From positions 1 through 43,588 of the forward strand of contig JAPKYU010000480.1 in the NCBI GenBank assembly GCA_026394175.1: DNA of 43,588 nucleotides. Direction: 5' to 3'. The DNA is from Acidobacteriota bacterium (GTDB taxonomy: Bacteria; Acidobacteriota; Terriglobia; JAJPHL01; JAPKYU01). Positions 8,819 through 40,730 of this stretch are shown here, piece after piece. The translations under genes were made by a program, and so were the position numbers. The notes beneath the pieces were generated by a model. It had not been told where the DNA came from. It made no database searches and saw only the letters and a list, made by a program, of their open reading frames with translations. Position 1 is the first letter of the stretch; every line of letters starts with the position of its first letter.

Positions 8819-10146
8819 GCTTATTTCATCACAAAGGCACAAAGGCACAAAGACACAAAGGGAACTCCTTCTTGGTGTCTTTGTGCCTTTGTGCCTTTGT
8901 GATAGGCGTTTCCGCTTTGCAGGCGCAAACCGGCCCGGCCGACCAGGAGGCGCTGGCCAAAGCCGAGGAAGCCATCAGCGCCAAGGACTACGCCAAAGCC
9001 CTCGCCGCGCTGGAACAACTGGTTGCCAGGGATCCGAAGAACTACCGGGCGTTGTTCGACATCGCCTACGCCTGCACCATGATGGGCGAGCGTGCCAAGG
9101 CCATTGAGGCCTATCGGAAGACGCTGGCCGTGCGCCCCGACCTGCCCCAGGCCAACGTGAACCTGGCGACGCTGCTGCTGGAGGAAAAGCAGGCAGCCGA
9201 AGCGGCCGGTTTGCTGGCGAAGGTGGCGGCCGCGCGGCCGAGCGACGCCCACGTGCAGCTCTTGCTGGCCAACGCGCTGGCCGGCAGCGGCCAGGACACC
9301 GAGGCCGCCGTCCAATATCGAAAGGTGCTGGCGCTGGATCCCAACTCCCCGGAGGCCTGCCTGGGGTTGGGCCGTATCCTGGCCAAGCAGGGACAGAACG
9401 CGGAGGCGGAACAGCAATTCGCCCGCGCCCTCCAGTTGCAGCCCGGCGACCCGGCCACGGTGCTGGAGGCGGGCCGCTTTTACGAAGCGGCCGGAAAAGG
9501 GGAGCAAGCCCTGCGCCTGTACGCCGGCCTGGCGGCCAAACAGCCGCAGAATGCCCAGGCGCGCCGCCGCTTGGGCGAATTGCTGCTCCACCAGAAGCGT
9601 TACGCCGAGGCGGCTACGGAACTGGAGGCAGCGGCCCGGCTGGCGCCCTCCCCACAGGACGACTGGAATTTGGCCCGTGCCTATGCCGGCGCCAAGCAAC
9701 CGGCGCAGGCCGTCCCCCTGCTCCGAAAAGTAGTGGCCGCCAATCCCGGTGACTACGACGCGCACCTGTTGTTGGGGGAGATGCTGACGTCGCTGCGCGA
9801 ATTCGCTGCGGCCCGCCCGGAACTGGAAGCCGCGGCCCGCCTGCGCCCCGAGGTCCCCGATGCCTGGGTGGACCTGGCCAACGTTTTGTACCTGCAGGGG
9901 GACTTGCCCGGCGCCGTCAGTATGCTGGACCGTGTGGCCGCCACCGGCCGCAAGACCGCCTGGTACTATTTCCTTCGCGCCATCACTCTGGATAAACTGG
10001 AAGTGCTGGACGAGGCCTTGGAATGTTACAAACAGTTTCTGGCGGCAGCCAACGGCGCCTACCCGGACCAGGAATTCCAGGCCCGCCAGCGCATCAAGGC
10101 CATCAACCTGCGCCTGGAAAAGGGCTGGAAACGGAGAAAACGGTGA
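8815..10146 (+). CDS. TPR-repeat protein, possibly secreted
   Basis: Multiple TPR-like repeats (AxxxYxkaLxxxPxxxxA). GTG 8815 overlaps the uvrA stop (GTGA). An alternative start is GTG 8899, after the palindrome. The long form begins with a signal-peptide-like sequence encoded by the palindrome itself. Confidence 0.8.
   Translation: MSLFHHKGTKAQRHKGNSFLVSLCLCAFVIGVSALQAQTGPADQEALAKAEEAISAKDYAKALAALEQLVARDPKNYRALFDIAYACTMMGERAKAIEAYRKTLAVRPDLPQANVNLATLLLEEKQAAEAAGLLAKVAAARPSDAHVQLLLANALAGSGQDTEAAVQYRKVLALDPNSPEACLGLGRILAKQGQNAEAEQQFARALQLQPGDPATVLEAGRFYEAAGKGEQALRLYAGLAAKQPQNAQARRRLGELLLHQKRYAEAATELEAAARLAPSPQDDWNLARAYAGAKQPAQAVPLLRKVVAANPGDYDAHLLLGEMLTSLREFAAARPELEAAARLRPEVPDAWVDLANVLYLQGDLPGAVSMLDRVAATGRKTAWYYFLRAITLDKLEVLDEALECYKQFLAAANGAYPDQEFQARQRIKAINLRLEKGWKRRKR
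8828..8903. repeat. periodic palindrome, CACAAAGG 8-mer family (perfect 29-nt arms)
   Basis: ATCACAAAGGCACAAAGGCACAAAGACAC (8828-8856) is the exact reverse complement of GTGTCTTTGTGCCTTTGTGCCTTTGTGAT (8875-8903). The spacer is 18 nt. Confidence 0.9.
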
Positions 10147-10619
10147 GCACCAGGGCCAAGCATTTCGCGGCGTCCGGTCTGCTGGCGCTTTCTCTGGCCG
10201 CCTGGGCGGCCACCGGCGACGACCAGGCGCGGATCAAGGCCAAGGCGCAAGCCGAAAAAGACCCCATCAAGCGCGCTCAACTGGAAATCCGGCTGGCCCA
10301 GTTCCGCCTGGACGGCGCCCAGAAGGCTTATGAAGAGGGCGTGCCCGACAAGGGGCTGGCGGAACTCAAGGAGATGATGGCGCTGGTTCAGGATGCGCAC
10401 AACCGGATGTTTGAAACCGGCCGCAATCCGCGTAAGAAGCCCAAGGGCTTCAAGGAAGCCGAAATCAAGTTCCGGGAGATGACGCGCCGCCTGAAGGATT
10501 TGCGGCTGTCGATCCCGGTCGACGATCGCGACCCGCTCGATAGCATGATCGCCAAGATCGTCAAGATGCAGGAACACCTGCTGAAGGGCTTGATGCAGGT
10601 CGATGAAGCCAAGAAATAG
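10143..10619 (+). CDS. secreted helical protein, function unknown
   Basis: GTG 10143 overlaps the TPR gene stop (GTGA). The N-terminus VSTRAKHFAASGLLALSLAAWAATG is signal-like. The rest is charged and helical. Confidence 0.6.
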   Translation: MSTRAKHFAASGLLALSLAAWAATGDDQARIKAKAQAEKDPIKRAQLEIRLAQFRLDGAQKAYEEGVPDKGLAELKEMMALVQDAHNRMFETGRNPRKKPKGFKEAEIKFREMTRRLKDLRLSIPVDDRDPLDSMIAKIVKMQEHLLKGLMQVDEAKK

Positions 10620-10674
10620 GCTGTAGGCTGTGGGCTCTGGGCCAGCCTACAAGCCACGGCTTGCAGCCCACAGC
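10619..10674. repeat. periodic imperfect palindrome, CTGTAGG/CCCACAG 7-mer family
   Basis: GGCTGTAGGCTGTGGGCT...AGCCCACAGC. GCTGTGGGCT (10627-10636) pairs with AGCCCACAGC (10665-10674), and there is an inner hairpin CAAGCC-AC-GGCTTG. It fills the whole spacer between the stop at 10617-10619 and ATG 10677. Confidence 0.6.
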
Positions 10675-10676
10675 GT

Positions 10677-11219
10677 ATGGGAAACATGAGGCAAGCTGTT
10701 TTAATGGCGGTGCTGCCCGCCATAGTGCTGTGCGTGCTCGCTACGGCGCAGCGGCGCGAATTCCTGACCGATGGCGAGATCGAGGCCATCCGCGAGGCCC
10801 AGGAGCCGAACGAGCGCCTCAAGCTCTACACCGACTTTGCCCACCAGCGGCTTTGGCTGGTGGAAAAGGCGCTGGCCGGTTCCGAGGCCGATCGCGCCCA
10901 GCAGATCCACACCACACTGAGCGAATACAACCGCATCCTGGAGGCCATCGACGCCAACGTTGACCAGGCCCTGACGCACCGCGACCTGGTGCGCAAGGGC
11001 CTGGAGTACGCGCTCAAGAACGAGCCGGATTTCCTGAAACTGCTTCAGTCCTTCCAGGCCCGCAATCCCAAGGACCTGGACGAGTACCGGTTCGCTCTCA
11101 GCCAAGCCATCGAGAATACCAAAGACAGCATCGACGGCCTGCGCGAGGCGCTTCAAAAACAGCCCAAGGGCCGCCAGCAAGAAAAAGAGGCCAGGGAAAC
11201 AAAGGGGAAAAAGGGGTAA
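10677..11219 (+). CDS. secreted helical protein, function unknown
   Basis: 180 aa. The N-terminal hydrophobic segment AVLMAVLPAIVLCVLATAQ is followed by charged helical sequence and a Lys/Glu-rich tail. Confidence 0.65.
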   Translation: MGNMRQAVLMAVLPAIVLCVLATAQRREFLTDGEIEAIREAQEPNERLKLYTDFAHQRLWLVEKALAGSEADRAQQIHTTLSEYNRILEAIDANVDQALTHRDLVRKGLEYALKNEPDFLKLLQSFQARNPKDLDEYRFALSQAIENTKDSIDGLREALQKQPKGRQQEKEARETKGKKG

Positions 11220-11998
11220 TGGCGGAAGAGCCGATTTCGGATTTCGGATTTCGGATTTCGGATTTCAAGCTCGAAGGCGGTTCGCAGCCGGCAATCCGCA
11301 ATCCGAAATCCGAAATCCGAAATTTGTTCGCCTCGGTGTTCCGCGAACTGAAGCCGCGGACCACCCGGCCGGACTTCGACATTCAGTTCCGTCCCTTTGC
11401 CGACGTGAACCACACCATACGCCTGCGGGAGGGGCGGGTGGTGGCGCGGCTGTCCGACCTGCTGCAGGGCGCGCCGCCGCCGGTGTGGGAAGCGCTGGCC
11501 TTCATCCTGCTCTGCAAACTGTACCGCCGGCCGGTCCCGGCCTGCCACGAGGCGCGCTATCGCCGCTTTCTGGGGCGCAAAGAGGTGCGCCGGCAGGTGG
11601 AGCTGGTGCGGCAGGCGCGTGGCCGCAAGCACCTGGACCCGCCGCAAGGCGCCGTCTACAACCTGGAGCGGATTTTTCAGGAACTCAATGCCCGGTTCTT
11701 CCACGGCCTGTTGGGGATGCCGGTTCTGGGCTGGAGCCGCAGCCGGTCGCGGACCATGCTCGGGCATTTCGATTCCGCCCACAACACCATCACCATCAGC
11801 CGCCTGTTCGATTCCCAAGCGGCGCCCAGGTACGTCCTGGAGTATCTGATGTATCACGAGATGTTGCACCTGAGGTACCCGGTGGTGCATTGTGCGGGAC
11901 GGCGCCGCGTGCACCCTGCCGAGTTTCAGCGCGACGAGCAGTTATTCCCGCGATACCAAGAAGTGCGCCGGGCGCTGAAAGCGCTTCAGTTACAGTAG
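11219..11998 (+). CDS. SprT-like zinc metallopeptidase-domain protein
   Basis: FQELNARFFHGLL...LGWSRSRSRTMLGHF...ITISRLF...YLMYHEMLHL (HExxH) resembles the SprT-like family. ATG 11219 overlaps the upstream stop (TAATG). Alternative starts are TTG 11324 and GTG 11336, after the GATTTCG hairpin. Confidence 0.65.
   Translation: MAEEPISDFGFRISDFKLEGGSQPAIRNPKSEIRNLFASVFRELKPRTTRPDFDIQFRPFADVNHTIRLREGRVVARLSDLLQGAPPPVWEALAFILLCKLYRRPVPACHEARYRRFLGRKEVRRQVELVRQARGRKHLDPPQGAVYNLERIFQELNARFFHGLLGMPVLGWSRSRSRTMLGHFDSAHNTITISRLFDSQAAPRYVLEYLMYHEMLHLRYPVVHCAGRRRVHPAEFQRDEQLFPRYQEVRRALKALQLQ
11233..11323. repeat. periodic palindrome, GATTTCG/CGAAATC 7-mer family
   Basis: (GATTTCG)x4.9 occupies 11233-11266. 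Complementary AATCCGCAATCCGAAATCCGAAATCCGAAAT occupies 11293-11323, giving at least 24 nt of exact complementarity. Confidence 0.85.
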
Positions 11999-12154
11999 CT
12001 TGCCCGCGATCCGTGGCTTTCCCCTTTTTTGCAACGAATCGCCCTGCGCCTGCATCTTATGGTTGTGGTGAACGACTCGCGGGCGGCTGCCCGCGAGGAC
12101 GAAGAAGAAACTGCCGGCCCGGCGGTACCGGCGCACGACAGGCGGGAATAGAAG

Positions 12155-12385: not shown

Positions 12386-12438
12386 GCTGGGGAAAGAACC
12401 CCGGTCGAGTTTCCTCAGGGTTTCCAGTCAGCGGGTCA

Positions 12439-12476
12439 GAAGCCGCCCGGCGCACCTCGGTCCGCCGGGCGGCTTC
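12439..12476. terminator. bidirectional stem-loop between convergent genes
   Basis: GAAGCCGCCCGGCG (12439-12452) and CGCCGGGCGGCTTC (12463-12476) form a perfect 14-bp stem with a 10-nt loop. Confidence 0.6.
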
Positions 12477-14265: not shown

Positions 14266-15531
14266 CTACGGGCGGGAGGCTGCGCGCCTCGCGAGGCTCC
14301 ACTTCAGAGCCGGCGGGGTGACGAGCGTGGTGACAAGGACCATCACGACAACCGCGGAAAACGTGGCCGCGTCCATGATCGGCCTGCCGCCGATGCTCAG
14401 AGACAGGCCAATGTTGGCGAAAATCAGGCCAACTTCGCCGCGCGGAATCATGCCCAAGCCCACCGACCAGCGGTCCACGCCTGCCTGAAACACACCGAGC
14501 GCGCAGGCCTGTTTGCCGATGACCGCGGCAACGACCAGCGCGGCGGCAAGCCCCAGAACGCTTGGCTCGGCAAACACGCGCAGGTCAGTCCGCATGCCCA
14601 TCAGCACGAAGAACACCGGCGCGAGGAAGTCCACCAGCGGCCGGACCAGTTCGCCCAGCGCCCGCTCGTCGCGCGCAACGAAACCGCGGTAGTGAACGTC
14701 CTCCAGAATCAGGCCGGCGGCAAACGCGCCGACGATGGGCGCCAACCCGACGGCTCCGGCCGCCCAGGAAAGCAGGAAGCAGAAGGACAGCCCGGTGGCC
14801 AGCAGCACGCCCCGCGCTCGGATTCTGGAAGCGGTCGAAAAGATCCGGGGCGAAAGCAGGACGCCGAGCACAAGAGATCCCACCAGGAAAACAATCGCCT
14901 TGGCAAGAACCGCAAGGACAGCGACCGCAGAAAAGCCGCCGCTGACGTCCGCCCTGGTGATCATGCCGGTCACAACGGCGAGGATCACCAGACCGAGAAC
15001 ATCGTCAATGACCGCCGCGCCGAGGATCACCCGTGCTTCCGCGCTCTTCGAGTGGCCCAGATCCTGAAACACCCGGGCGGTGATGCCGACGCTGGTCGCG
15101 CACAGAGTGGCGCCGAGGAAGGCGTGCACGTAGGGGCCCGAATCGGGCAGCAGCAGCGCTCCCACGCCCCAGCCTAAGGCAAAGGGAGCCAAAACTCCCA
15201 GTGCCGCGACGGAGAGCGCCGTTCTCCCCACCCGCAGCATTTCACCAACCGTCGATTCCAGGCCGACCTCGAACAGCAGGATGATTACGCCCAGGCGGGC
15301 AATCATGTCCACCATCGGGTCGTGCGTGATCTGTGCCAGGCCCGGCACGCCCACGAGCGCCAGATTGCCGAGCACGATGCCGACAACCAGCTCGCCCAGT
15401 ACCGCCGGCTGCCCCAGCCGCACCGCCGCGTGGCCGCCGATCTTGGCCGCCATCAGCAGAATCGCCAGCCCCAGCATCAGCGAGGTGACCGGGTCCGGTG
15501 CGAGAAACGCGAGCGCCACCATCGAATTCAT
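14266..15531 (-). CDS. cation:proton antiporter (Na+/H+ exchanger / Kef-like family)
   Basis: MNSMVALAFL...LGQPAVLGELVVGIVLGN... with about 12 TM segments. ATG at 15531 was chosen because the longer TTG start at 15549 lies inside a repeat element. Confidence 0.85.
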   Translation of the reverse strand: MNSMVALAFLAPDPVTSLMLGLAILLMAAKIGGHAAVRLGQPAVLGELVVGIVLGNLALVGVPGLAQITHDPMVDMIARLGVIILLFEVGLESTVGEMLRVGRTALSVAALGVLAPFALGWGVGALLLPDSGPYVHAFLGATLCATSVGITARVFQDLGHSKSAEARVILGAAVIDDVLGLVILAVVTGMITRADVSGGFSAVAVLAVLAKAIVFLVGSLVLGVLLSPRIFSTASRIRARGVLLATGLSFCFLLSWAAGAVGLAPIVGAFAAGLILEDVHYRGFVARDERALGELVRPLVDFLAPVFFVLMGMRTDLRVFAEPSVLGLAAALVVAAVIGKQACALGVFQAGVDRWSVGLGMIPRGEVGLIFANIGLSLSIGGRPIMDAATFSAVVVMVLVTTLVTPPALKWSLARRAASRP

Positions 15532-15616
15532 TGAACCACAAAGCCACAAAGAACACGAAGGTTCACACAGCGTAAAGCTTCGTGAACTTGGTGGTCTTCG
15601 CTTCTTTGTGGTGAAC
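15531..15616. repeat. degenerate periodic palindrome, CACAAAG/CACGAAG family
   Basis: CCACAAAGAA (15544-15553) pairs with TTCTTTGTGG (15602-15611). CGAAG pairs with CTTCG, and GTTCAC with GTGAAC. It fills the spacer between the chrA stop and the antiporter start. Confidence 0.55.
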
Positions 15617-15621
15617 GAACT

Positions 15622-16815: not shown

Positions 16816-16889
16816 CGTTCCGCCACCATGCTAACTCCGATGGGCCGTGGGAGCCAATCCGTACCTTGAATTTGAAACTTGAGACTTCT

Positions 16890-17915: not shown

Positions 17916-17957
17916 GGCTGCCTAGCGCTCTGCCTCCCAGACAGGGTGACCGCAGCG

Positions 17958-18013
17958 AAGGCGGAAGGCAGACGGCGGAAAGCAGCATGCGCCGTTGCCG
18001 CCTTCCGCCTTCC
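17958..18013. repeat. periodic palindrome, GAAGGCG/CGCCTTC 7-mer family
   Basis: GAAGGCGGAAGGC..ACGGCG (17958-17978) pairs with CGCCGT..GCCGCCTTCCGCCTTC (17991-18013). That gives 13 + 6 bp with a small internal loop. Confidence 0.65.
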
Positions 18014-18168
18014 GCTTTCTGTCTTCAGCCCGATGATTCATTGTCCGGACGCGGTACGTGATATGGGATGGCACGGCGCGGCCGGGCGTTGCCACCCCGC
18101 GGGCCGTGCCCCCGCGGTCAGAATGCCTCTGGTTAAAACAGAATGCAAGTGAATTGTTTGAACAGACC

Positions 18169-18245
18169 GGCTGTCGCCTGACGGCTGTCGGCTCGGGGTC
18201 TTTCGTGCGCCGTCAGCCGCCGGCCGTCAGCCGATCGCCGGTCGC
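18169..18245. repeat. weak period-7 inverted repeat (GGCTGWC / GWCAGCC) overlapping the thrC 3' end
   Basis: GGCTGTCGCCTGACGGCTGTCGG opposes CCGTCAGCCGCCGGCCGTCAGCC, with about 78 percent complementarity by hand. The right arm encodes the last thrC residues. Confidence 0.35.
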
Positions 18246-19550: not shown

Positions 19551-19570
19551 CGATGTTATCTCACCACAAA

Positions 19571-19659
19571 CAGTGATAAGTGACGAGTGACAAGTGACGA
19601 GCGGCCCGGCCTCGCTTGTCACTCATCACTCGTCACTTGTCACTTGTCACTCATCACTG
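19571..19659. repeat. periodic imperfect palindrome, GTGAYRA/TYRTCAC 7-mer family
   Basis: CAGTGATAAGTGACGAGTGACAAGTGACGAGCG opposes CGCTTGTCACTCATCACTCGTCACTTGTCACTTGTCACTCATCACTG. There are 4 units against 6 units. It contains the thrB stop codon. Confidence 0.8.
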
Positions 19660-20572: not shown

Positions 20573-20649
20573 ATCCCTAAGTTAAAGGAAAAACACAAAG
20601 ACACCAAGGCGGAAAGAAGACCCAAGATCGAGCCGCGAGCGTCAGAGGA

Positions 20650-21902: not shown

Positions 21903-24900
21903 ATGGCACGCCTGGAAGACTTAAAACCCGGCGGCACTATCAAGGGCATATTACCGGACGCCCAGGTGACGGTGATCGAAGCCAAGTTCCACGGTGCCAA
22001 CGTCGTGGAACTGGTTTACAAAGACGCCAAGGGACGCCTGGGCACGGAACTGATCTACCGGTACCGTGAGCCGACTTTGGAAATCGTCGCGGAGGGCCAG
22101 CCCTGGAGCTTCGATGCTGATGCCGGCATGCTGCGGCTTGTTTCGGAGGCCTACCGCATCCGTCTGGCGTACCTGTTCGACCCCCTTCTGGCCATCCACA
22201 CGTCGCTGATCGATCCTCTGCCTCACCAGATCACCGCCGTTTACGCCGAGATGCTCAGCCGGCAGCCGCTACGCTTCCTGCTCGCCGATGATCCCGGCGC
22301 GGGCAAAACCATCATGGCGGGCTTGCTGATCAAGGAACTGCTGATACGGGGCGATCTCCACCGCTGCCTGATCGTCTGCCCCGGAATGCTCGTCGAGCAA
22401 TGGCAGGACGAACTCGATCTAAAGTTCCACCTGCCGTTCGAGATCCTCACCAACGACAAGCTGGAAGCATCGCGAACCGGAAACTGGTTCCTTGAGAATC
22501 CACTGGCAATCTGCCGCCTCGACAAACTGAGCCGCGATGAGGACGTTCAAGCTAAGCTGGAAACGACCGACTGGGACCTGGTCGTCTGCGATGAAGCGCA
22601 TAAAATGTCGGCTTCCTTTTTTTCCGGGGAAGTAAAGGAAACCAAGCGCTACAAGCTCGGCCGGCTGCTCTCACGCCTCACCCGCCATTTCCTCCTGATG
22701 ACGGCCACACCGCACAACGGCAAAGAGGAGGACTTCCAGCTTTTCATGGCGCTGATCGACGGGGACCGTTTCGAAGGCAGGTTCAGGGATGGCGTCCACG
22801 TCACCGACGTCTCCGACATCATGCGCCGTCTGGTGAAGGAGCACATGCTCAAGTTCGACGGGACGCCGCTCTTCCCAGAGCGCCTGGCCTACGCGGTGAA
22901 CTACAAACTGTCAGATGCCGAGGCGCACCTCTACGAGCGCGTCACCAACTACGTCCGTGAAGAGTTCAACCGTGCGGAGGCCTTGGAGAACGAGGGGCGA
23001 AAAGGCACGGTCGGTTTCGCGCTGACCATTCTTCAGCGCCGCCTCGCGTCCTCCCCGGAAGCCATCTACCAATCGCTCAAGCGCCGGCGCGAGCGCCTGG
23101 AAAAGCGCTTGGCGGAAGAGAAGCTGCTCAAGCGAGGCCGCGACGCGGGCATGAGTCGCATGGAACTGATGGCGGCGCGCGTCGAAACCGGCCAGGATTT
23201 GCCGCTGATCAAGGCCGAAGACTTGGACGACATGGAGGATGCACCCGAGGCCGAAGTCGAACAGGCGCAGGAGGAGGTGGTCGACCAGGCGTCGGCGGCC
23301 CGCACAATTGCCGAGCTTCAGGCCGAGATCGACATACTGCGGGAACTGGAAGGCCTGGCATGGCAGGTCCGTAAGAGCGGGACGGACAAGAAGTGGGAGG
23401 AGCTGTCGAAAGTTCTCGATGAAAGCGCCACCAAGTGCAATGCCGAAGGCCACGGTTGGAAGCTGGTGATCTTCACTGAGCATCGCGACACGCTGAGTTA
23501 CCTGGCTCAGAGGATCGGCGACCGGATCGGCGCGGCAGCGGTCGTCATGATTCATGGCGGAATGGGCCGCGAGGAGCGCAAGAAAGCGCAGGAAACGTTC
23601 ACCTAGGATAAGAGCGTTCAAGTCCTCGTCGCCACCGACGCGGCGGGGGAAGGTATCAACCTTCAGCGGGCGCACCTGATGATGAACTACGACCTGCCAT
23701 GGAACCCCAACCGGATCGAGCAGCGGTTTGGGCGCATCCACCGCATCGGCCAGACCGAGGTATGCCATCTCTGGAACCTGGTTGCCGGCGAGACGCGAGA
23801 GGGCGAAGTGTTCCATCGGCTGTTTGAGAAACTGGAGGAGCAGCGCAAGACGCTGGGCGCCGGGGTTTTTGACATTCTGGGCAAGCTTTTCCGTGACACG
23901 CCGCTGCGCGACCTGCTGGTGGAGGCCATCCGTTACGGAGACCGCCCGGAAGTGCGCGAGCGCCTGCGTTTGATCGTTGACAACCTGGCCGACCGTGAGC
24001 GCTGCACGGAGCTGCTCGAAGAACGGGCGCTTGCCCACGATTCGATGGATGCCTCGGCTGTACGTCGTATCCGCGAGGAAATGGAGCGCGCCGAAGCCCG
24101 CCGCTTGCAGCCGCACTTCATCGAGGCTTTCTTCCTGCAGGCCTTCCGTCTGATGGGCGGCGCCATTCACGGGCGCGAACCGAGGCGCTATGAGATCACG
24201 CATGTTCCGGCGGTGGTTCGCAGCCGGGATCGGCAGATTGGCACCCGCGAGCCTGTGCTCGCCCGCTACGAGCGCATCACTTTCGAGAAAGACCTGATAG
24301 CTTTCCCGGGCAAGCCGCTGGCGGCGTTCGTTTGCCCCGGTCACCCGCTGCTGGACGCGACGATTGACCTCATCCTGGAACGCAACCGCGACCTGTTGAA
24401 GCGCGGCGCGGTTCTGCTGGACCAGAGCGATGCGGGTGAGAAGACGCGGGCGCTCTTCTATTTGGAGCATTCCATCCAGGACGCCCGCACCGATCGCTCC
24501 GGCAATCGCCGCGTCGTCTCCCGCCAGATGCAGTTCGTCGAGATCGACTGCGCAGGCACGGCCCGCACCGCCGGCTATGCGCCCTACTTGGATTACCGGC
24601 CGCTGACGGAGAAGGAGCGTCCGCTGGTTACCCCGCTCGTGGAAAAGCTGCTGGCAACAAGCGAAATTGAGGCGCAGGCATCGTCCTATGCCATCTCCAA
24701 TCTCGTGCCCGCCCATTTTGAAGAAGTCCGCGAGCGCCGGGAAGAACTGGTTCGCAAGACGATGGCGGCCGTCAAAGACCGCCTCACGAAAGAGATCAAC
24801 TACTGGGACCACCGCGCTGAAGAACTGAAAATTCAGGAACTGGCCGGCCGCGTGAACGCCCGCATCAACTCCGGTAAGGCCCGCCAGCGCGCCGACGAAC

Positions 24901-25436
24901 TCCAGGTCAGATTGCAGAAGCGTATGGAAGAGTTGGAGCAGGAGCGATTGCTCTCTCCACTCCCGCCCGTTGTCATCGGCGGCGCGCTGGTCATCCCCGC
25001 TGGTCTGCTGGCCAAACTGAGGGGCGAATCGCGGGAGGCTCTCGATCACTTCGCGCGTGAAACCAAGCGCAGCGAAGAGATGGCGATGGCGGCAGTCATG
25101 GAGGCGGAACGCGGGCTCGGATTTGATCCGAAGGATGTGAGCGATCAGAAATGCGGCTACGATATTGAGTCCCGGGTGCCGGCAACCGGCAACTTGCGTT
25201 TCATTGAGGTGAAGGGCCGCATGGCCGGGGCAACAACGGTGACTATCACGAAGAACGAGATTCTAGCGGCGCTCAACAAGCCCAACGACTTCGTCCTGGC
25301 GATTGCCGAGGTGGACGGTGACGTCGCGCGGCTGCGGTACGTCCGGCGGCCTTTTCAGCAAGAGCCAGACTTCGCCGTGACCAGTGTAAACTACAACCTC
25401 GAACAGTTGCTGTTTCGCGGAGAAGATCCGTGCTGA
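21903..25436 (+). pseudogene. SNF2-family helicase with C-terminal DUF3883 (PD-(D/E)xK-like) domain, interrupted by one in-frame TAG
   Basis: ORFs 21903..23606 and 23679..25436 are in the same frame. TAG lies at 23604-23606. Helicase motifs are DPGAGKT (I) and DEAHK (II). Motif V, VLVATDAAGEGINLQ, is encoded directly after the TAG and before the next ATG. Motif VI is QRFGRIHRIGQ. The C-terminus has GYDIES...FIEVKG. Confidence 0.85.
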
Positions 25437-28659: not shown

Positions 28660-29057
28660 GCTATCCCCCCAATTACCGTTATACGCGGGAGCACGAGTGG
28701 ATTCGGCTCGAAAACGACACCGCCGCCGTCGGCATCACCGACCATGCCCAGGAGCAACTGGGCGACATCGTTTACCTGGAACTGCCGAAGGTCGGCGACC
28801 GCTTCAGCGCCACGCAGCCGCTGGGCACGGTGGAATCGGTGAAGGCCGTCTCCGATATCTACTCGCCGGTGACCTGCGAGGTCGTCGATGTCAACGCCGA
28901 GCTGGCCGCACACCCGGAGTTGCTGAACCAGGACCCGCACGGCGCCGCCTGGCTGGTGAAGGTACGCCTTGCCGACCGCGCCCAGCTCGATGGCCTGCTG
29001 TCGGCGGAGCAGTACGAAGCCTACATTGCCGAAGAGGCAGTGAAGAGTGACAAGTGA
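28656..29057 (+). CDS. gcvH: glycine cleavage system H protein
   Basis: YTREHEWIRL...LGTVESVKAVSDIYSP carries the lipoyl-lysine motif. The last codons (SDK-stop) lie in a repeat element. Confidence 0.95.
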   Translation: MSYPPNYRYTREHEWIRLENDTAAVGITDHAQEQLGDIVYLELPKVGDRFSATQPLGTVESVKAVSDIYSPVTCEVVDVNAELAAHPELLNQDPHGAAWLVKVRLADRAQLDGLLSAEQYEAYIAEEAVKSDK

Positions 29058-29124
29058 TAAGTGACGAGCCACCCGGTCCTCACTCGTCACTGGTCACTGG
29101 TCACTGGTCACTGGTCACTCGTCA
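29040..29124. repeat. periodic imperfect palindrome, GTGAYRA / TGGTCAC 7-mer family
   Basis: GTGAAGAGTGACAAGTGATAAGTGACGAG opposes CTCACTCGTCAC(TGGTCAC)x4TCGTCAT. It spans the gcvH stop to the gcvPA ATG. Confidence 0.85.
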
Positions 29125-30407
29125 TGCGCTATCTTCCGAAGTCCGATATTGAGCGGCGCCAGATGCTGGAGGCGCTGGGGTTGGGCGGCATGGAGGAGCT
29201 GTTCGCCCACATCCCCGCCGAGATCCGCCTTTCGCGCCCGCTGAATCTTCCCGACGGCGTTTCGGAGATGGAGGTGCTGCGGTATTTCCAGAAGCGGGCG
29301 GGCGAGAACGCGGCCGGCTACGTCTCGTTTTTGGGCGCCGGTGTCTACCACCACTTCCGGCCCGTGGTCATCGACTCGCTGATCTCGCGCGGCGAGTTCT
29401 ATACCGCCTACACGCCCTACCAGGCGGAGATCGCCCAGGGCACGCTGCAGTCCATCTTCGAATTCCAGACCATGATCTGCCAGCTCACCGGCATGGAAGT
29501 GGCCAACGCTTCCATGTACGACGGCTCGACGGCGCTGCCCGAGGCGGTGCTGATGGCGGCGCGAATCACGGGACGGCGCAAGGTGGCCGTGGCCCGCTCC
29601 GTGCACCCGGAGTACCGGCAGGTGCTCGACACCTACACGCGCTTTCAGGGCATCCAGGTGCGGGAACTGGAGTATGACCGGGAGGCGGGCACGCTGGCGC
29701 CGTTTACCATCGACGATGGCGTGGCCGCCATCGTCCTGCAATCGCCCAATTTCTTCGGGATCGTCGAGGACCTCGAGCGGGCGGCGGAAATGGCCCACGC
29801 CGCCGGCGCGCTGTTGATCGTGGTCATCACCGAGCCGGTGTCGCTGGGGCTGCTCAAGCCGCCGGCCTCGGCCGATATCGTGGCCATGGAAACGCAGGCT
29901 TTGGGCATGGCGCCCAGTTACGGCGGGCCCTACGCCGGGGTGATCGCCACGCGCGAGAAATACGTGCGCAGCATGCCCGGGCGCCTGGTGGGGCAGACCA
30001 CCGACGCGCAGGGCCGGCGCGGCTTTTGCCTGACGCTGGCCACCCGCGAGCAGCACATCCGCCGCGAAAAAGCCACCTCCAACATCTGCACCAACCAGGC
30101 GCTGTGCGCGCTGATGGCCGCCATCTTCATGACCGTGTACGGCAAGGAGGGCCTGCGCGAGCTGGCCCGGCAGAACCTGGCCAAGGCCCATTACGCCGCG
30201 TCGCGGTTGAAGCTGAAGTTCTCCGGGCCGTTTTTCAACGAGTTCGTGGTGGCGGGCGGAAAGACCAGGGCGCTGTTGGACAAGAAGATTCTCGGGGGGC
30301 TGGATTTGCGCAAGTTTTATCCGGAGCTCGGCGAGGCGCTGCTGGTCTCGGTCACCGAGGTGCATACGCGCCAGCAGATTGATGAGCTGGTCGGGGGACT
30401 GGCATGA
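29124..30407 (+). CDS. gcvPA: glycine dehydrogenase (decarboxylating) subunit 1
   Basis: [20 protein letters not shown]...[23 protein letters not shown]. The 21-aa extension to 29061 is repeat-encoded and was rejected. Confidence 0.95.
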
Positions 30408-31891
30408 AGAAAGCAAGGCCACACGTCAACCAGAACGAAGGGCTGATCTTCGAGCACTCCTCGCCGGGCAAGCGGGCCTGGCAGTTGCCGCCGCTCGACG
30501 TGCCGGAGGTGGACCCGGCCGCGGCGCTGGGCGGCGACCACATACGCGAGAGCATCGGCGGCTTCCCCGAGGTGAGCGAGGTGGAGGTGGTCCGCCACTT
30601 CACCCGCCTCTCCACCTGGAACTACGGTGTGGACACCGGCCTGTACCCGCTCGGCTCCTGCACCATGAAATACAACCCCAAGGTGAACGAGGTGGTGGCG
30701 CGGCTGGAGGGCATCGCCGGCGTGCATCCCTACCAGCCGGACGCCCTGGCCCAGGGCTGCTTGAAGATCCTGCGGCTGCTTTCCGGCTGTCTGCTGGAGA
30801 TCACCGGGATGGAGGCCATCACGCTGCAGCCGGCCGCCGGCGCCCACGGGGAGTTGACGGGCATCCTGCTGGTCCGCGCCTATCTGGAATCGCGGGGCAA
30901 CCCGCGCCGGAAGATCCTGATCCCGGACTCCGCGCACGGCACCAATCCGGCCACCGCGGCGATTGCCGGCTACCAGGTGGAAAACATCCGCTCCAACGCC
31001 CTGGGGACCGTGGACCTGGATGTTCTTCGCCGCGCCGTCACCGAAGAGGTGGCGGCGCTGATGATCACCAACCCGAACACCCTCGGCATTTTCGAGGAGA
31101 ACATCGGCGCCATCGCCGAAATCCTGCATGCCCGCGGCGCGCAGCTTTACATGGACGGCGCCAACATGAACGCGCTGGTGGGCATGGTGCGGCCCGGCGA
31201 CGCCGGCGTGGACGTGATGCACCTGAACCTGCACAAGACCTTCTCCACGCCCCACGGCGGCGGAGGGCCGGGCGCCGGGCCGGTGGGTGTCAAGAAGCAC
31301 CTGGAGCCGTTCCTGCCCGTTCCCGTGCTGGAGAAGGGCGCCGGCGGCCGCCTGCGCCTGATCCACCACCGGCCGCAGGCCATCGGCCGGGTGCGCGCCT
31401 TCACCGGCAACTTCGGCGTGCTGGTCCGCGCCCTGGCCTACATCCTGGCCTGCGGCGGCAACGGGCTGAAGGCCGCCACCCAGGACGCTGTGCTGAACGC
31501 GAATTACATCCGCAAGGGTCTTGAGGATGTCTACGACCTGCCCTACAAGCAGCCCAGCCTGCACGAATGCGTGTTCAGCGACCGCCTGCAGGCCGGCCAC
31601 GGCGTGCGCACCGGCGATATCGCCAAGCGCCTGATCGATTACGGCTTCCACCCTTACACCGTCAGCTTCCCGCTGATCGTGCACGGCGCGCTGATGATCG
31701 AGCCGACCGAGAGCGAGAGCAAGGAAGAGCTGGACCTGTTCATCGAGGCCATGCGGGAGATCGCGCGGGAGGCCGAGCAGGAGCCCCAGACGGTGCTCGC
31801 CGCGCCGCATACCACGCGGGTCGGCCGGCTGGATGAAGTTACGGCCGCCCGCCGCCCCATCCTCCGCTGGCAGGAACCGATTGCGGAGTGA
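30404..31891 (+). CDS. gcvPB: glycine dehydrogenase (decarboxylating) subunit 2
   Basis: [11 protein letters not shown]...[19 protein letters not shown] carries the PLP-lysine motif. ATGA overlaps the gcvPA stop. Confidence 0.95.
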
Positions 31892-31929
31892 GTAGACTCC
31901 GCACTCCGAATTCCGCACTCCGCACTCGG
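31882..31929. repeat. tandem TCCGCAY heptamer array with one opposing unit
   Basis: TGCGGAGTG (in the last gcvPB codons) is followed by TCCGCAC TCCGAAT TCCGCAC TCCGCAC TCGG. Confidence 0.6.
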
Positions 31930-31998
31930 CTCAGGCGATTTTGCGCAGCTTGACTATTTAGACGATGGCGGACGTCCAAGAGGTGTCAAAAGCTGCAA

Positions 31999-32090
31999 CA
32001 GAGCCGCGAGCGTAAGCGAACGGGTGCCCGCGCAGCGCATGGGCTCGGTTGTCCTGCGGGAGCACCCGCTCGCTTACGCTCGCGGCTCTG
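31999..32090. repeat. REP-like long hairpin (29-nt arms, 1 mismatch)
   Basis: CAGAGCCGCGAGCGTAAGCGAACGGGTGC (31999-32027) opposes GCACCCGCTCGCTTACGCTCGCGGCTCTG (32062-32090). The right arm contains the cmk stop codon. A solo half-copy GAGCCGCGAGCGTCAGAGG lies at 20630-20648. Confidence 0.8.
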
Positions 32091-32757
32091 CTGCGGATCG
32101 CTGCCGGACGTGCTGCAGGATGGCATCGACTACCTGGTCGATGGTGAGGGAAGAGGAATCAAGGTAAATGGCGTCGGGGGCCTGGAGCAGGGGCGAGTCG
32201 GCGCGCTGGCTGTCGCGCCGGTCGCGCTCCTTGATTTCCGCCATGAGCTGCTTCAGGCGGGCGGGATCGCCGGGCGTCCCGGCATCCGACTGGGCCAGCC
32301 GGCGGCGGCCGCGCACCTCGGCGCTGGCGTCCAGGTAGACCTTCACTTCCGCGTCCGGGAAGACCTTGGTGCCGATATCGCGGCCTTCCATCACCACGTT
32401 GCCGGAGCGCCCCAGCTCACGCTGCCGCCGGACCAGCGCCCGGCGAACACCGGGCAGCGCGGAAACGATGGAGGCCGCCTGGCTGACCTCCTCGCCGCGA
32501 ATGACGTCGGTAATGTCTTCGCCGTCGGCCAACAGCCGGTTGCCCTGCGCGGTGGACAGGAAACGGTAGTGGATGTCCCCGGCCAGTTCCTCGAGCGCCG
32601 GCGCGTCCGACAGCGGAACGCCGCGGCGCAGCGCGAACAGCCCCACCGCCCGGTACATGGCCCCCGTTTCGATGTAGGGGCAGCCGAGGCGCTGTGCCAG
32701 CAGCCGCGCCACCGTGCTCTTGCCCGCCCCGGCGGGCCCGTCAATAGCTATAACCAT
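32074..32757 (-). CDS. cmk: cytidylate kinase
   Basis: MVIAIDGPAGAGKSTVARLLAQRLGCPYIETGAMYRAV. Confidence 0.93.
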   Translation of the reverse strand: MVIAIDGPAGAGKSTVARLLAQRLGCPYIETGAMYRAVGLFALRRGVPLSDAPALEELAGDIHYRFLSTAQGNRLLADGEDITDVIRGEEVSQAASIVSALPGVRRALVRRQRELGRSGNVVMEGRDIGTKVFPDAEVKVYLDASAEVRGRRRLAQSDAGTPGDPARLKQLMAEIKERDRRDSQRADSPLLQAPDAIYLDSSSLTIDQVVDAILQHVRQRSAAEPRA

Positions 32758-32830
32758 CAGGCTACAGGCTACAGGCTACAGGCTGCAGGCCGCAAGGCGG
32801 TTCCTTCCTGCAGCCTGCAGCCTGCGGCCT
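32758..32830. repeat. periodic palindrome, AGGCTRC / GCAGCCT 7-mer family
   Basis: C(AGGCTAC)x3 AGGCTGC AGGCCGC AAGG / cggtt / CCTT CCTGCAG CCTGCAG CCTGCGG CCT. It fills the entire spacer between the mutL stop and the cmk start. Confidence 0.85.
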
Positions 32831-37338: not shown

Positions 37339-37341
37339 AAG

Positions 37342-37419
37342 ACAGGCTACAGGTTGCAGGCTGCAGGCCACAGGAAGTGCGACTGGAACCTGCAGCCTGT
37401 AGCCTGTGGCCTGTAGCCT
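37342..37419. repeat. periodic palindrome, AGGCTRC / CTGTAGC 7-mer family
   Basis: ACAGGCTACAGGTTGCAGGCTGCAGGCCACAGG opposes CCTGCAGCCTGTAGCCTGTGGCCTGTAGCCT. All arm differences are transitions. It spans from the mreB stop to 3 nt before the mreC ATG. Confidence 0.85.
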
Positions 37420-37422
37420 CTC

Positions 37423-39009
37423 ATGGACACGCTGTTCAGCCGCTATCGCAACGCCGTGGTGCTGGTGGCGGCCCTGTTCCTGCAACTGGTCCTGCTGGCC
37501 TTCCAGATCAAGCGCGACAAGGATGTTCCGCTGCTCCGCATCTGGGCCGTCGGTGCCATCACGCCCCTGGAAAAGCTGGTGAGCAGCGGCGTCCGCGGCG
37601 TCTACGGGGTGTGGCACGACTATGCCGACCTGCGCCAGGCGCGGCAGGAAAGCCAGGGGCTCTTGGAAGAGGTCAGCCGGCTCAAGCTGGAGCGGCACCG
37701 GTTGCTGGAAGAGGCGGCCGAAGCGCGCCGGCTGCGCGCCCTGGTGCAGTTCCGCGACCTGACGCCCTCGGTCACCGTGGCCGCCCGCGTCATCGGATCC
37801 AGCGCCTCGGAAACGTCCCGCGTGCTGTTTCTCGACAAGGGCAGCGAGTCCGGCATCCGGCCGAACATGGCGGTGATTACCCCGGATGGCATCGTCGGCA
37901 AGGTCCACCGTGTCTTCCGCGGCACGGCGCAGGTGCTGGTGATCACCGACCCGGACAGCGGCCTGGGCGCGGAGTTGGGCGCGCTGCTGCAGTCTTCCCG
38001 CGTGCATGGCGCATTGCGCGGCTATGGCGGCTTCTTCTGCCAGCTCCGCTACATCGCCAACGACGAAAAAGTGGAACCCGGCGATCTGGTAGTTACTTCC
38101 GGCGAGGACCGCATCTATCCCAGGGGTCTGCCCATCGGCGTCGTCACCTCCGCCAAGAACGGGCCGGTGTTCAAGGAAATCATGGTGCAGCCGTTGGCCC
38201 GGCTCAACCGGCTGGAGGAAGTGCTGGTGGTAACGCGCGGCGCGGACCAGGAGATTCCGGCCAGGCCCGAGCCTGCGCCGGCGGTTGCCGAAACCACGCC
38301 GGCTGAACCCCCGCGGGCGCCCCCCGCTTCCGCTGCGCCGGGGACCGGCGCAAAGCCGGCAGCCGACGCTGCGGCCAAGCCCAAGGCGGTTCCTGGACTG
38401 GCGGGCTCCCGCACCAAGCCCGAAACCGACGCCGATCGGCTACAGGATGCGTATCGGGCCGTGCAGGCCCAGAAGAGCGAGGCGCAGCGGGCGCTGGGCG
38501 GGTTGATGCTGCCGGCGACGGGCGGCGGAGTCACGGACATGGCACGCCAGCCGCCTGCGACCGCGGCCGCGCCCGCGGCCCGCAAGCCGCCGGCGACCAG
38601 TGCCGCCCCCGGGAGCGCGGGCGTGCCGCCCGCTCAGGGGCCGCCCGCCGGCAGTAATGTAGGGGCGCCGCTCGCTGCGCCCCGCAAACCTCCTCCAACC
38701 ACCGGGGGTACAGCAAGCAGCGCCCCTGCCGTCCAGCCGCCATCGCCGCCGCGCAAGGCGCCTCCGACATCGGCAGCTCCGGCAGGGAACGCCGGCCCAG
38801 GCCAACCGCAATCCGCACCGCGCAAGGCGCAACCGAAACCGCCGCCGTCCACCACCGGCCAGTCCCCTGAAGGAGCGAAACCCCAACAGCCGACGCAACA
38901 GAAGCCGCCAGAACAGCCGCCATCGGATTCACCGTCTCCGTTGGCTTGGCTGTCTCCGCACTCCGCATTCCGCATTCCGCACTTCTTCGGACGCCAGGAG
39001 GACCGCTGA
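37423..39009 (+). CDS. mreC: rod shape-determining protein MreC with a long Pro/Ala-rich C-terminal tail
   Basis: Assigned by position between mreB and mreD, an N-terminal TM plus coiled coil (LLEEVSRLKLERHRLLEEA), and a beta-barrel region (ITPDGIVGKV, LVVTSGEDRIYPRGLPIGVV). About 250 aa of P/A-rich low complexity follow. Confidence 0.85.
   Translation: MDTLFSRYRNAVVLVAALFLQLVLLAFQIKRDKDVPLLRIWAVGAITPLEKLVSSGVRGVYGVWHDYADLRQARQESQGLLEEVSRLKLERHRLLEEAAEARRLRALVQFRDLTPSVTVAARVIGSSASETSRVLFLDKGSESGIRPNMAVITPDGIVGKVHRVFRGTAQVLVITDPDSGLGAELGALLQSSRVHGALRGYGGFFCQLRYIANDEKVEPGDLVVTSGEDRIYPRGLPIGVVTSAKNGPVFKEIMVQPLARLNRLEEVLVVTRGADQEIPARPEPAPAVAETTPAEPPRAPPASAAPGTGAKPAADAAAKPKAVPGLAGSRTKPETDADRLQDAYRAVQAQKSEAQRALGGLMLPATGGGVTDMARQPPATAAAPAARKPPATSAAPGSAGVPPAQGPPAGSNVGAPLAAPRKPPPTTGGTASSAPAVQPPSPPRKAPPTSAAPAGNAGPGQPQSAPRKAQPKPPPSTTGQSPEGAKPQQPTQQKPPEQPPSDSPSPLAWLSPHSAFRIPHFFGRQEDR
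38954..38981. repeat. tandem TCCGCAY heptamer array inside the mreC 3' end
   Basis: TCCGCAC TCCGCAT TCCGCAT TCCGCAC. No complementary arm was seen nearby. It is translated as ...SPHSAFRIPHF. Confidence 0.6.
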
Positions 39010-39010
39010 C

Positions 39011-39535: not shown

Positions 39536-39550
39536 CCGCGCCCTAACTCA

Positions 39551-39620
39551 CCACAAAGGCGCCTGGACACAAAGCTTCGTGCCCTTTTCTTTGCGACGTT
39601 GTGGCTTCGTGCCTTTGTGT
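39551..39620. repeat. degenerate periodic palindrome, CACAAAG/CTTCGTG family
   Basis: CACAAAGGC (39552-39560) pairs with GCCTTTGTG (39611-39619). There is an internal direct repeat GCTTCGTGCC x2 (39574-39583, 39604-39613). Confidence 0.5.
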
Positions 39621-39690
39621 TGAAGCGCTGGCGGCCGGGCTATTCTGTCTCTCTGTGGCTGATCCCCCTCCAGGACTCCCGATAGCAGCG

Positions 39691-39699
39691 TGATAGAAT
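39691..39699 (+). promoter_or_regulatory. extended -10 promoter candidate giving a leaderless ABC transporter mRNA
   Basis: TGATAGAAT has the form TGnTAnAAT. Its last T (39699) is 7 nt before the A of ATG 39706, and no SD is present. Confidence 0.4.
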
Positions 39700-39705
39700 T
39701 TCTTC

Positions 39706-40644
39706 ATGTCCGTTGCGGTGCGCTGTGCAGGGCTCCACAAGCGCTACGACAACAAGGTGGACGCGGTTCGCGGCCTGGATCTGGAGGTCGAACAGGGCGA
39801 GTGTTTCGGCCTGCTGGGGCCCAACGGCGCCGGGAAAACCACCACCATCGAGATCATCGAGGGCTTGCTGTCCGCCACGGCGGGCGAGGTCGAGGTCTTC
39901 GGCAAGCGCTGGGGCCGCGACGACGACGAGCTGCGCGAGTTGCTCGGCATCTGCCTGCAGGAAACCCGGCTGTCCGAAAAACTCAAGGTACGGGAAACGC
40001 TGGAGCTGTTCGCCAGTTTTTACCGCCGCCCCGCCGACCCGGCCCGCGTCATGCGGGAGGTGGAGCTGACCGAGAAGGCCGAAGCCTGGGTGGGCAAGCT
40101 GTCGGGCGGGCAAAGGCAGCGGCTGGCGGTGGCCTGCTCGCTGGTGGGCGACCCGCGCCTGCTCTTCCTGGACGAGCCCACCACGGGGCTGGACCCCCAG
40201 TCGCGCCGCCAGCTCTGGGACATCGTTCGCAAGTTCAAGCGCCAGGGCGGGACCGTGCTGCTCACCACCCATTACATGGACGAGGCCGAGCGGCTCTGCG
40301 ACCGCGTGGCCATCATCGACCACGGCAGGATCATCGCGCTGGGCACGCCGCGGGAACTGATCCACTCCTTGGGCGCCGAACACATCGTGGAATTCACGCT
40401 GGCCGACCCGGCTGCCTTTCCCGACCTGGGGGGCGACGGCCTGGCTGCCGTCCCCACGGTGCTCTCGGTGCGCCAGGAAGACGGCCTGTACGCGCTCACC
40501 GTCGGCGAGCCGCACCGCGCGCTCCCGGCCCTGTTCGACTGGCTGGAAGGGCGCGGCATCGAGCTGGCCCGCTTGAGCACCCGCCATGCCAGCCTCGAAG
40601 ACGTGTTCGTGAAGCTGACCGGAAGGCACCTGCGGGATGAATAG
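39706..40644 (+). CDS. ABC transporter ATP-binding protein (ABC-2/DrrA-like)
   Basis: Walker A is GLLGPNGAGKTT, the signature is LSGGQRQRL, and Walker B is LLFLDEPTTGLD. Confidence 0.92.
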   Translation: MSVAVRCAGLHKRYDNKVDAVRGLDLEVEQGECFGLLGPNGAGKTTTIEIIEGLLSATAGEVEVFGKRWGRDDDELRELLGICLQETRLSEKLKVRETLELFASFYRRPADPARVMREVELTEKAEAWVGKLSGGQRQRLAVACSLVGDPRLLFLDEPTTGLDPQSRRQLWDIVRKFKRQGGTVLLTTHYMDEAERLCDRVAIIDHGRIIALGTPRELIHSLGAEHIVEFTLADPAAFPDLGGDGLAAVPTVLSVRQEDGLYALTVGEPHRALPALFDWLEGRGIELARLSTRHASLEDVFVKLTGRHLRDE

Positions 40645-40730
40645 GCTGTGGGCTGTAGGCTGTAGGCTGTGGGGGATGCGCTATACGCGTCAGTGCCTTT
40701 CCCACAGCCCACGGCCTACAGCCTACAGCC
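40643..40730. repeat. periodic palindrome, GGCTGTR / YACAGCC 7-mer family
   Basis: AGGCTGTGGGCTGTAGGCTGTAGGCTGTGGG (40643-40673) opposes CCCACAGCCCACGGCCTACAGCCTACAGCC (40701-40730). The arms differ only by transitions. It begins in the TAG stop of the ATPase gene. Confidence 0.85.

Follow-up and report, generated by a model that had tools for sequence, protein, structure and literature searches.

Periodic inverted arrays in the short spacers of a Terriglobia contig

What are the long hairpins that occupy the short gaps between genes on contig JAPKYU010000480.1, and by which process did they arise? The stretch under study (the window, meaning the whole 43.6 kb of DNA that was analysed, 65% GC) comes from a soil or sediment bacterium of the phylum Acidobacteriota, class Terriglobia. 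An earlier reading of its sequence, hereafter the original prediction, had pointed to many intergenic hairpins whose arms are built of tandem 7–8 nt units. In our interpretation, to which we assign a probability of about 0.7, they are inverted pairs of microsatellite arrays with units of 7–8 nt here and of 9–10 nt among sister strains. The arrays would arise by slippage, and each pair folds into a long stem-loop within a non-coding spacer that is transcribed.

We searched the window for short-period arrays with a custom scan, and 40 dinucleotide-preserving shuffles were used as the control. The scan returned 21 arrays, compared with a mean of 2.5 in the shuffles, and 17 of the 21 had a period of 7 or 8 (shuffle mean 0.15), indicating that runs of at least three head-to-tail copies of a 5–11 nt unit occur above chance. 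For 13 arrays, an inverted partner array able to form a stem-loop with it lay within 70 nt at a score threshold of ≥12; no such pair was found in the shuffles. Direct reading, Tandem Repeats Finder and the inverted-repeat list confirmed every coordinate of the original prediction, so the hairpins are real and lie where it had placed them. Its list of arrays held in all entries and missed one weak TTGAAAC array at 16865–16887.

Twelve two-armed stem-loops folded at −26 to −71 kcal/mol, a density of 12 hairpins per 43.6 kb, and nearly every one of the window's longest inverted repeats is such a periodic hairpin. The stems are composed of 22–33 bp of tandem units, and arm lengths and loops differ from copy to copy. 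The units belong to the families CACAAAGG, GGCTRYA, GTGAYRA, GATTTCG, GAAGGCG and TCCGCAY. Copies of the same type have unrelated loops and flanks, the element ends are not conserved, and the unit variants differ in each copy. Only the units recur, which upholds the earlier claim that these are not copies of a single mobile element.

An origin by chance or by faulty assembly has next to no probability. The window's 17 arrays of period 7–8 and 13 inverted pairs compare with 0.15 and none in the shuffles. The same hairpins turn up in over 20 assemblies made independently (ENA, JGI and Logan), which rules out an assembly artefact, and further hairpins of the same design were found outside the window in the same species.

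Unit-number variation among strains

For comparison, exact-protein look-ups in ENA, JGI and Logan assemblies supplied about 40 conspecific metagenome contigs, which are about 97–99.9% identical to the window; in total, about 75 kb of this genome was covered. Along the 43.6 kb, most insertions and deletions (indels) fell in the arrays, with few small ones elsewhere. Length changes clustered at five hairpins, and those that aligned cleanly amounted to 7 or 14 nt, in one arm each time, among strains that are ~99% identical.

In the gcvH/gcvPA spacer, the hairpin (GTGAYRA)4–loop–(TCACTSG)6.4 (29040–29124) carried two, three, four or five TCACTGG copies in its 3' arm, depending on the strain. The cmk/mutL hairpin, (CAGGCTR)5–loop–(CCTGCRG)3 (32758–32830, −53 kcal/mol, genes on the minus strand), varied by one unit (±7 nt) in either arm. 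A unit of the 5' arm was lost in L094 from the mreB/mreC hairpin, (ACAGGCT)4.7–loop–(CCTGYRG)4.4 (37342–37419, −58 kcal/mol). At the ABC ATPase/permease spacer, where the window has (AGGCTGT)4–loop–(ACAGCCY)4 (40643–40730, −71 kcal/mol), one or two 5'-arm units were lost, giving 5' arms of 2, 3 or 4 units among strains. The fifth hairpin, (TAGGCTG)n in the 10.6 kb spacer between hyp158 and hyp171 (10617–10674), gained one 5'-arm unit (+7 nt). Furthermore, in the hairpin (GATTTCG)5–loop–(CGAAATC/CGCAATC)4–5 (11233–11323, −55 kcal/mol), the variant unit GCAATCC had spread within the 3' arm in L103 and L104 while the length was unchanged.

Since the clean indels are 7 or 14 nt long and confined to a single arm, replication slippage is indicated. 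Gain or loss of complete units, with one arm changing at a time, is its signature. The arrays change length rapidly between strains, and slippage as a generating mechanism, one of those suggested at first, is therefore supported by length polymorphism among strains.

Replacement of whole hairpins

Besides changes in unit number, whole hairpins are replaced by another unit type within a spacer. This was observed at three spacers: the 10.6 kb spacer, mreB/mreC and ABC ATPase/permease. The mreB/mreC spacer of L100 holds a hairpin of GGCTGGA type; the alleles swapped into the other two (in L091 and L095 for ABC ATPase/permease) are of CGCAGAT type with a period of 9–10 nt. The CGCAGAT type does not occur in the window and was found at no fewer than seven loci elsewhere, with variable unit number. 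One of its sites is present or absent as a whole. In the window, gcvPA and gcvPB overlap by ATGA (30404–30407) and have no hairpin between them, while all 19 other strain loci over this junction carried a 90-nt insertion holding a CGCAGAT-type hairpin (L081 11739–11824). The insertion is bordered by a direct duplication of TGAAGAA (7 nt), and next to it the last ~25 nt of gcvPA have diverged, with several synonymous changes.

Such replacements might be taken as signs of mobility. The hairpins would then be non-autonomous mobile elements, of the repetitive extragenic palindrome (REP)/REPIN, miniature inverted-repeat transposable element (MITE) or terminal inverted repeat (TIR) type, copied by a hairpin-recognising single-strand transposase (RAYT-like TIRYT) encoded elsewhere, and the tandem units would be secondary or a by-product. 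We consider this unlikely. It would agree with the occurrence of the same unit types at several spacers in constant polarity, with type-for-type replacement at three spacers among ~99% identical strains, with the CGCAGAT type at seven or more loci, and with the gcvPA/gcvPB hairpin that is present or absent beside a direct duplication. Like reported REPs, the hairpins never lie between divergent genes. In addition, RAYT-like transposases of a separate group, with long inverted repeats on either side, are known from Acidobacteria (PMC3733652), and heptamer arrays flank a small cargo gene on the metagenome contig L062.

However, copies of one type share neither loop nor flank sequence and have no conserved ends, and each has its own arm length and unit variants. 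Target-site duplication was seen at the gcvPA/gcvPB site and at none of the other copies, and no transposase, RAYT (Y1/HUH) included, appeared in the Pfam lists for ~75 kb of this genome. Homologous recombination with a diverged donor would fit equally well in two places: at the diverged gene end beside the present/absent hairpin, and beside one replaced allele, where the final three codons, counting the stop, show three synonymous differences. REPs have stems of 5–13 bp, a fixed sequence and an unpaired GTAG or CGTC tag, compared with tandem-unit stems of 22–33 bp here.

The corresponding classes were rejected on the same features. REP, bacterial interspersed mosaic element (BIME) and REPIN do not fit stems of 22–33 bp made of tandem units, with loops and arm lengths varying per copy, nor is there a common terminal GTAG or CGTC: GTAG occurs only within the paired GGCTGTA units of one type. 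The placement is REP-like, in co-directional and convergent spacers and not in divergent ones. A MITE was rejected because internal sequences and ends are unrelated and the 7-nt direct duplication is found only at gcvPA/gcvPB. CRISPR was ruled out by inspection, as there are no regularly spaced unique spacers.

Placement relative to genes

The gene map obtained from Pfam scans agrees with the one assumed in the original prediction. It comprises a UvrA-like and a TPR gene, the Na/H exchanger and ChrA, thrC-thrB-surA, a helicase/ATPase island, gcvT-H-PA-PB, cmk-mutL, mreBCD and the ABC ATPase-permease pair, and 10.9% of the window is intergenic. Spacer ends were set by gene ends taken from strain contigs. 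Two-armed periodic hairpins were found in 9 of 13 co-directional spacers of 60–130 nt, and one-armed arrays in two more. It had been claimed that the hairpins fill most short co-directional spacers, including those inside operons, and these counts bear this out. None of the four divergent spacers contained an array or hairpin, and one one-armed array lies between convergent genes. Fifteen of the 17 arrays are intergenic, the exceptions being at 16196 and 38954. Thus, the hairpins are kept out of divergent spacers and, almost wholly, of coding sequence. They are also absent from the accessory segments, as had been noted; this is true but carries little weight, because short co-directional spacers are almost missing there.

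The contact with the neighbouring genes is close, and several hairpins span the distance from a stop codon to the next start codon. The cmk/mutL hairpin is the entire spacer from the mutL stop to the cmk start, and a degenerate CACAAAG-type hairpin (15531–15616, genes on the minus strand) fills the distance from the ChrA stop to the Na/H-exchanger start. For hyp158, the ABC ATPase and mutL, the TAG stop is part of the first unit of a TAGGCTG-type array, and for cmk, gcvPA and the Na/H exchanger the ATG directly adjoins the 3' arm. Repeat units also encode the C-termini of GcvH and ThrB. At 29040–29124 the array supplies the last five gcvH codons (VKSDK*, TGA stop) and the A of the gcvPA ATG. 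The thrB/thrC spacer holds the hairpin (GTGAYRA)4.4–loop–(TYRTCAC)7 (19571–19659, −55 kcal/mol), whose array contains the thrB stop (TGA) and the last five codons (VMSDK*).

Arrays also mislead gene callers in practice. The 11233–11323 hairpin sits inside a gene called at 11219–11998, and the called starts of that gene and of the TPR gene shift with or through the hairpins. We considered as a general rule that the 5' arm carries stop codons in all three frames. It holds for TAGGCTG and GTGACAA, fails for CACAAAGG, GATTTCG and GGCTACA, and was rejected.

Signals at the RNA level

Placement of this kind suggests another explanation, namely that the hairpins are selected RNA elements in polycistronic mRNAs, acting as RNase III sites, as 3'-end stabilisers or in translational coupling by masking the downstream start, with repeats being the cheapest way to grow a long stem. 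We regard this as possible, though it falls well short of being probable. The hairpins were found only in spacers that are transcribed through, and stems of 22–33 bp meet the length requirement of RNase III. Since the 3' arm reaches up to the starts of cmk, gcvPA and the Na/H exchanger, a ribosome-binding site would have no space there. Because stop codons lie at the 5' base and starts at the 3' arm, folding brings stop and start together. A spacer retains a hairpin even after its sequence has been swapped. Of the hairpin sites, 1.2% carried segregating substitutions; the figure was 1.5% for coding sequence and 2.3% for the remaining intergenic DNA, a lower diversity in the hairpins that hints at constraint or homogenisation. 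A margin of at least 3 kcal/mol favoured the sense fold in 6 of 12 hairpins and the antisense fold in one, and the minimum-free-energy folds differed in G·U pairs (33 vs 19). Both differences are suggestive only, and both could also stem from strand-biased deamination. Transcript stability or translational coupling has been proposed for the hairpins of short tandemly repeated repetitive (STRR) sequences in cyanobacteria (PMC2670836).

On the other side, no compensatory signal was found in the hairpin arms. The original prediction had described the arm-to-arm differences as all transitions in several copies. This applies to 4 of 12 hairpins; overall, there were 31 transition-type and 25 transversion-type mismatches. 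Its suggestion that such differences are tolerated in RNA as G–U pairs received no significant support (18 G·U vs 13 A·C mismatches on the sense strand). The expanded unit in the gcvH/gcvPA 3' arm is mismatched to the 5' arm, the variant unit at 11.2 kb has spread in one arm only, and arm lengths are unequal. Neither the orthologous mutL/cmk spacer of relatives nor the window's own gcvPA/gcvPB junction has a hairpin. A scan of the window with the Rfam covariance models gave no match at gathering score. In the terminator scan, hits were not above those in shuffles, no periodic hairpin was listed as a whole, and no T run followed the hairpins; the sole hit inside a hairpin was a 6-bp sub-stem on the antisense strand of the mreB/mreC 5' arm. 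An intrinsic (Rho-independent) terminator was rejected, as the stems have no T-tail. A role at the RNA level, be it protection of 3' ends, cleavage by RNase III or translational coupling, is unproven and, in our interpretation, secondary.

Slippage as the probable origin of the array pairs

Several observations weigh against slippage as a full account. By itself it gives no reason for a second arm, for the same unit types at several spacers or for the preference for period 7. The whole-hairpin swaps and the one present/absent hairpin with its 7-nt duplication look like mobility or recombination, and the low substitution diversity and the more stable sense fold also count against it. Nor does it account for the polarity. 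The purine-rich arm was 5' in 14 of 18 hairpins of this species, and among the listed metagenome matches with GGCTRYR arrays the G-rich arm came first in 16 and second in 2. As the design is strand-symmetric, the direction of transcription makes no difference to this bias. A universal rule that the purine-rich or G-rich arm comes first was rejected, because several hairpins of the unrelated contig L140 begin with the pyrimidine-rich arm. Because slippage does not account for the 7-nt preference, the polarity bias and the recurrence of units, both the mobile-element and the RNA-function alternatives stay alive.

We nevertheless favour inverted microsatellite pairs that arise by slippage, and the following course would account for them. 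The seed may have been a short palindrome or a one-armed array, and slippage, with polymerase stalling at the hairpin as its probable stimulus, would have expanded each arm. Complementarity would be created and refreshed via arm-to-arm (quasi-palindrome) template switching or by inverted duplication. Later decay of the copies would account for the degenerate hairpins at 15531, 18165 and 39551. Arrays would persist where they do little harm, outside promoters and also outside reading frames, because steps of 7–8 nt shift the frame. An insert that folds on itself may be tolerated, as the stop and start codons stay close together.

Relation to known repeats

These hairpins are the same kind of element as the STRR hairpins of cyanobacteria and the inverted heptamer pairs of Xanthomonas. 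Two statements of the original prediction, that they form an undescribed repeat class and that a 7–8 nt periodicity is unusual, thus have to be given up, since heptamers, STRR hairpins and Xanthomonas inverted pairs had all been described. The proposed search for a catalogued family gave a divided answer: the kind is already described, and the unit sequences match none of the named families STRR1–3, GGGAATC and TAACTGA, so that different families of the same kind are concerned. For Acidobacteria, our literature search found no description of such hairpins.

In Xanthomonas (X. campestris and X. axonopodis), GGGAATC arrays number 186 and 183 in two genomes, with 70 and 75 convergent inverted pairs (Rehm et al. 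2015, PMC4692102). These pairs have stem-loop potential and are transcribed; their length varies between the two species, and the single or paired type is kept (PMC4692102). The likeness is close: intergenic 7-nt arrays of mostly 2–5 copies, an array followed by a short gap and the inverted array, the G-rich array first, and length and sequence variable between close relatives. However, the Xanthomonas catalogue comprises a single G-rich unit type, which was investigated for G-quadruplex formation, whereas at least six unrelated types occur here, most without G-quadruplex potential, along with periods of 8–10 nt, in another phylum and at a much higher density (12 hairpins in 43.6 kb).

STRR repeats of 7 bp form hairpins between hupS and hupL in several cyanobacteria, and their function is unknown (PMC2670836). 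STRR sequences resemble the present arrays in having 7-bp tandem units, several types per genome, an intergenic location that includes operons, and hairpin formation. They differ in unit sequence, although some Terriglobia relatives do match Nostoc units such as TTGTCAG; moreover, they were mostly described as one-armed, and we found no report of a strain-level length series for them.

In most bacterial genomes, heptamers are reported to be the commonest class of long simple-sequence repeat, and slippage was proposed for them (Mrazek 2007, as cited in PMC4679880 and PMC4692102). As far as it is represented in those two papers, this literature on long simple-sequence repeats of 5–11 nt units describes heptamer-dominated, non-coding arrays for which slippage is proposed, like those here. 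It deals with direct arrays, and the paired inverted architecture is not its focus. Some units with stops in all three frames, located beside gene ends, are a further likeness to these repeats and to the TAACTGA arrays of Beggiatoaceae, as far as those sources report them. The TAACTGA arrays, in contrast, sit just upstream of start codons and are inverted in 1 of 170 cases. With REP, BIME and REPIN and their RAYT transposases, the hairpins share an extragenic palindromic form, co-directional and convergent spacers, probable transcription and multiple types per genome. Those elements are near-identical fixed copies with a tag, unlike the variable tandem arms and unrelated loops without a tag found here, and no RAYT was seen in the ~75 kb of genome.

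Why 7-nt repeats dominate bacterial microsatellites, and what hairpin-forming heptamer repeats do, are questions that have been open since the STRR papers of about 1990. The strains compared here provide a clear natural experiment: dozens of near-identical strains carry an allelic series (2–5 units), swapped hairpins and one empty site, and the variation lies inside essential operons (gcv, mre, thr, mutL-cmk). With this series, the swaps and the empty site, the mode of mutation, the polarity and the effects on downstream translation become directly measurable. Strains of uncultured Terriglobia could moreover be typed with these arrays as markers.

Relatives and other metagenome contigs

The closest MutL belongs to a Terriglobia metagenome-assembled genome (MAG) and is 70% identical to that of the window, and 79 of the 80 best genomic matches are Acidobacteriota. 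The mutL/cmk spacer was the only one comparable in more distant relatives. In L001 and L003 (MutL 70% and 59% identical), mutL is followed by cmk with a short, hairpin-free spacer, indicating that the hairpin is a lineage-specific insertion that created the spacer. We also examined 80 other Terriglobia loci for arrays of 5–10 nt period. Period 7 was the commonest (51 arrays), with 32, 25 and 5 arrays of periods 5, 6 and 8; the arrays were sparser than in the window and mostly one-armed, and orthologous spacers bore different units. Across loci, 56 unit pairs were within one mismatch of each other, compared with 26.6 ± 4.5 expected. This excess would suggest a shared unit vocabulary, and we did not rely on it because orthologous arrays and unit variants within one hairpin act as confounders.

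A metagenome scan for three GGCTRYR units matched at least 120 contigs of 27–71% GC. Among the matches listed, an inverted partner was found downstream in 16 of 75 and upstream in 2 of 71; shuffled flanks gave none. The unrelated contig L140 (9.5 kb, 52% GC) has six hairpins at 2342–9338 between co-directional open reading frames (ORFs), of at least four unit types (CGAAAGA, CCCATAG, TTTAYGA and CTAACGG).

It might be supposed that all of these represent one distinct, self-renewing intergenic class that spans phyla (Cyanobacteria, Xanthomonas, Acidobacteriota and others) and follows rules of its own. Such a class would owe its existence to a mechanism of its own, either a hairpin-specific HUH/TIRYT-type enzyme or hairpin-templated repeat synthesis, in place of passive slippage, or it would be kept as RNase III or translational-coupling modules between cistrons. 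If so, its rules would include a period of 7–10 nt, a purine- or G-rich arm first, and, within a genome, several unit types that colonise new spacers and take each other's place in existing ones. We think this rather improbable.

Heptamer arrays can bracket a cargo gene, as in L062. There, the inverted arrays (AGTGGCG)4 and (GCCACTC)4 at 789–1228, 384 nt apart, enclose a small gene whose product belongs to the 23S rRNA intervening-sequence protein family (PF05635, E = 5e-38); they lie upstream of a putative hisS, an ORF of 519 aa. Other units recall those of distant bacteria. In MAGs of Acidobacteriaceae/Korobacteraceae, (AGGGATT)9 at L040 9240–9302 and GGGATYA at L068 9049–9069 are close to the quadruplex-type heptamers GGGGATT (Nostoc) and GGGAATC (Xanthomonas). 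The TTGTCAG/CTGACAA arrays of L036 have the same unit as repeat csR1.1 of Nostoc PCC 7120 (PMC2408588).

Remaining arrays and neighbouring features

The remaining arrays of the window are described in order of position. The UvrA-like/TPR spacer contains a stem-loop with (CACAAAGG)4 arms of an 8-nt unit (8828–8903). Its 33-nt arms are 97% complementary, it folds at −55 kcal/mol, and it was unchanged in six strains. The weak array missed in the original prediction (16865–16887) is one-armed, reads CTTGAAT TTGAAAC TTGAGAC and lies in the ChrA/cmk-like spacer; the related unit GAAACTT/GAAACTC builds arrays in L014 and L033. A (GAAGGCG)n/(CGCCTTC)n hairpin (17957–18030, −42 kcal/mol) occupies the cmk-like/thrC spacer. 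The GGCTGTC/GACAGCC-type inverted repeat over the thrC stop region (18165–18245) is weak, with 83% complementarity, and is the least convincing member. In the thrB/surA spacer, there is a solo arm, ACACAAAGACACCAAGG (20593–20609).

Downstream of gcvPB, the array (TCCGCAY)5 (31882–31929) had been called mostly one-armed. An array does lie there, but a short complementary 5' arm (GCGGAGTG) is present too, and in L185 this unit type is two-armed. The one-armed array (YTCCGCA)4 at 38954–38981 lies within the 3' coding end of mreC, in a long low-complexity C-terminal extension, and is identical in the window and 10 strain contigs. Finally, a degenerate CACAAAGG-type hairpin is located 3' of mreD (39551–39620, −26 kcal/mol).

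Two further inverted repeats were noted. The longest of the window (31995–32094, 41-nt arms, 90% complementary) is non-periodic and lies between gcvPB and cmk, overlapping the cmk 3' end; a 3-nt strain indel is located at the inner edge of its 3' arm, and its motif AGCCGCGAGCGT is found again at 20631–20642. Another, with 27-nt arms (89% complementary), lies within the UvrA-like coding sequence at 6618–6696.

The accessory genes also vary. A CAG-to-TAG nonsense change at 23604–23606 splits the SNF2/NOV_C helicase gene (21903–25436), which is intact in L081 (1177 aa). A strain-variable accessory site (window 3708–5797; 13637–15023 in L115 and L116) holds either an AbiEii gene or a 329-aa ORF. 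The ParE toxin gene beside an RHH antitoxin gene (window 42112–42467) is full-length, truncated or absent, depending on the contig.

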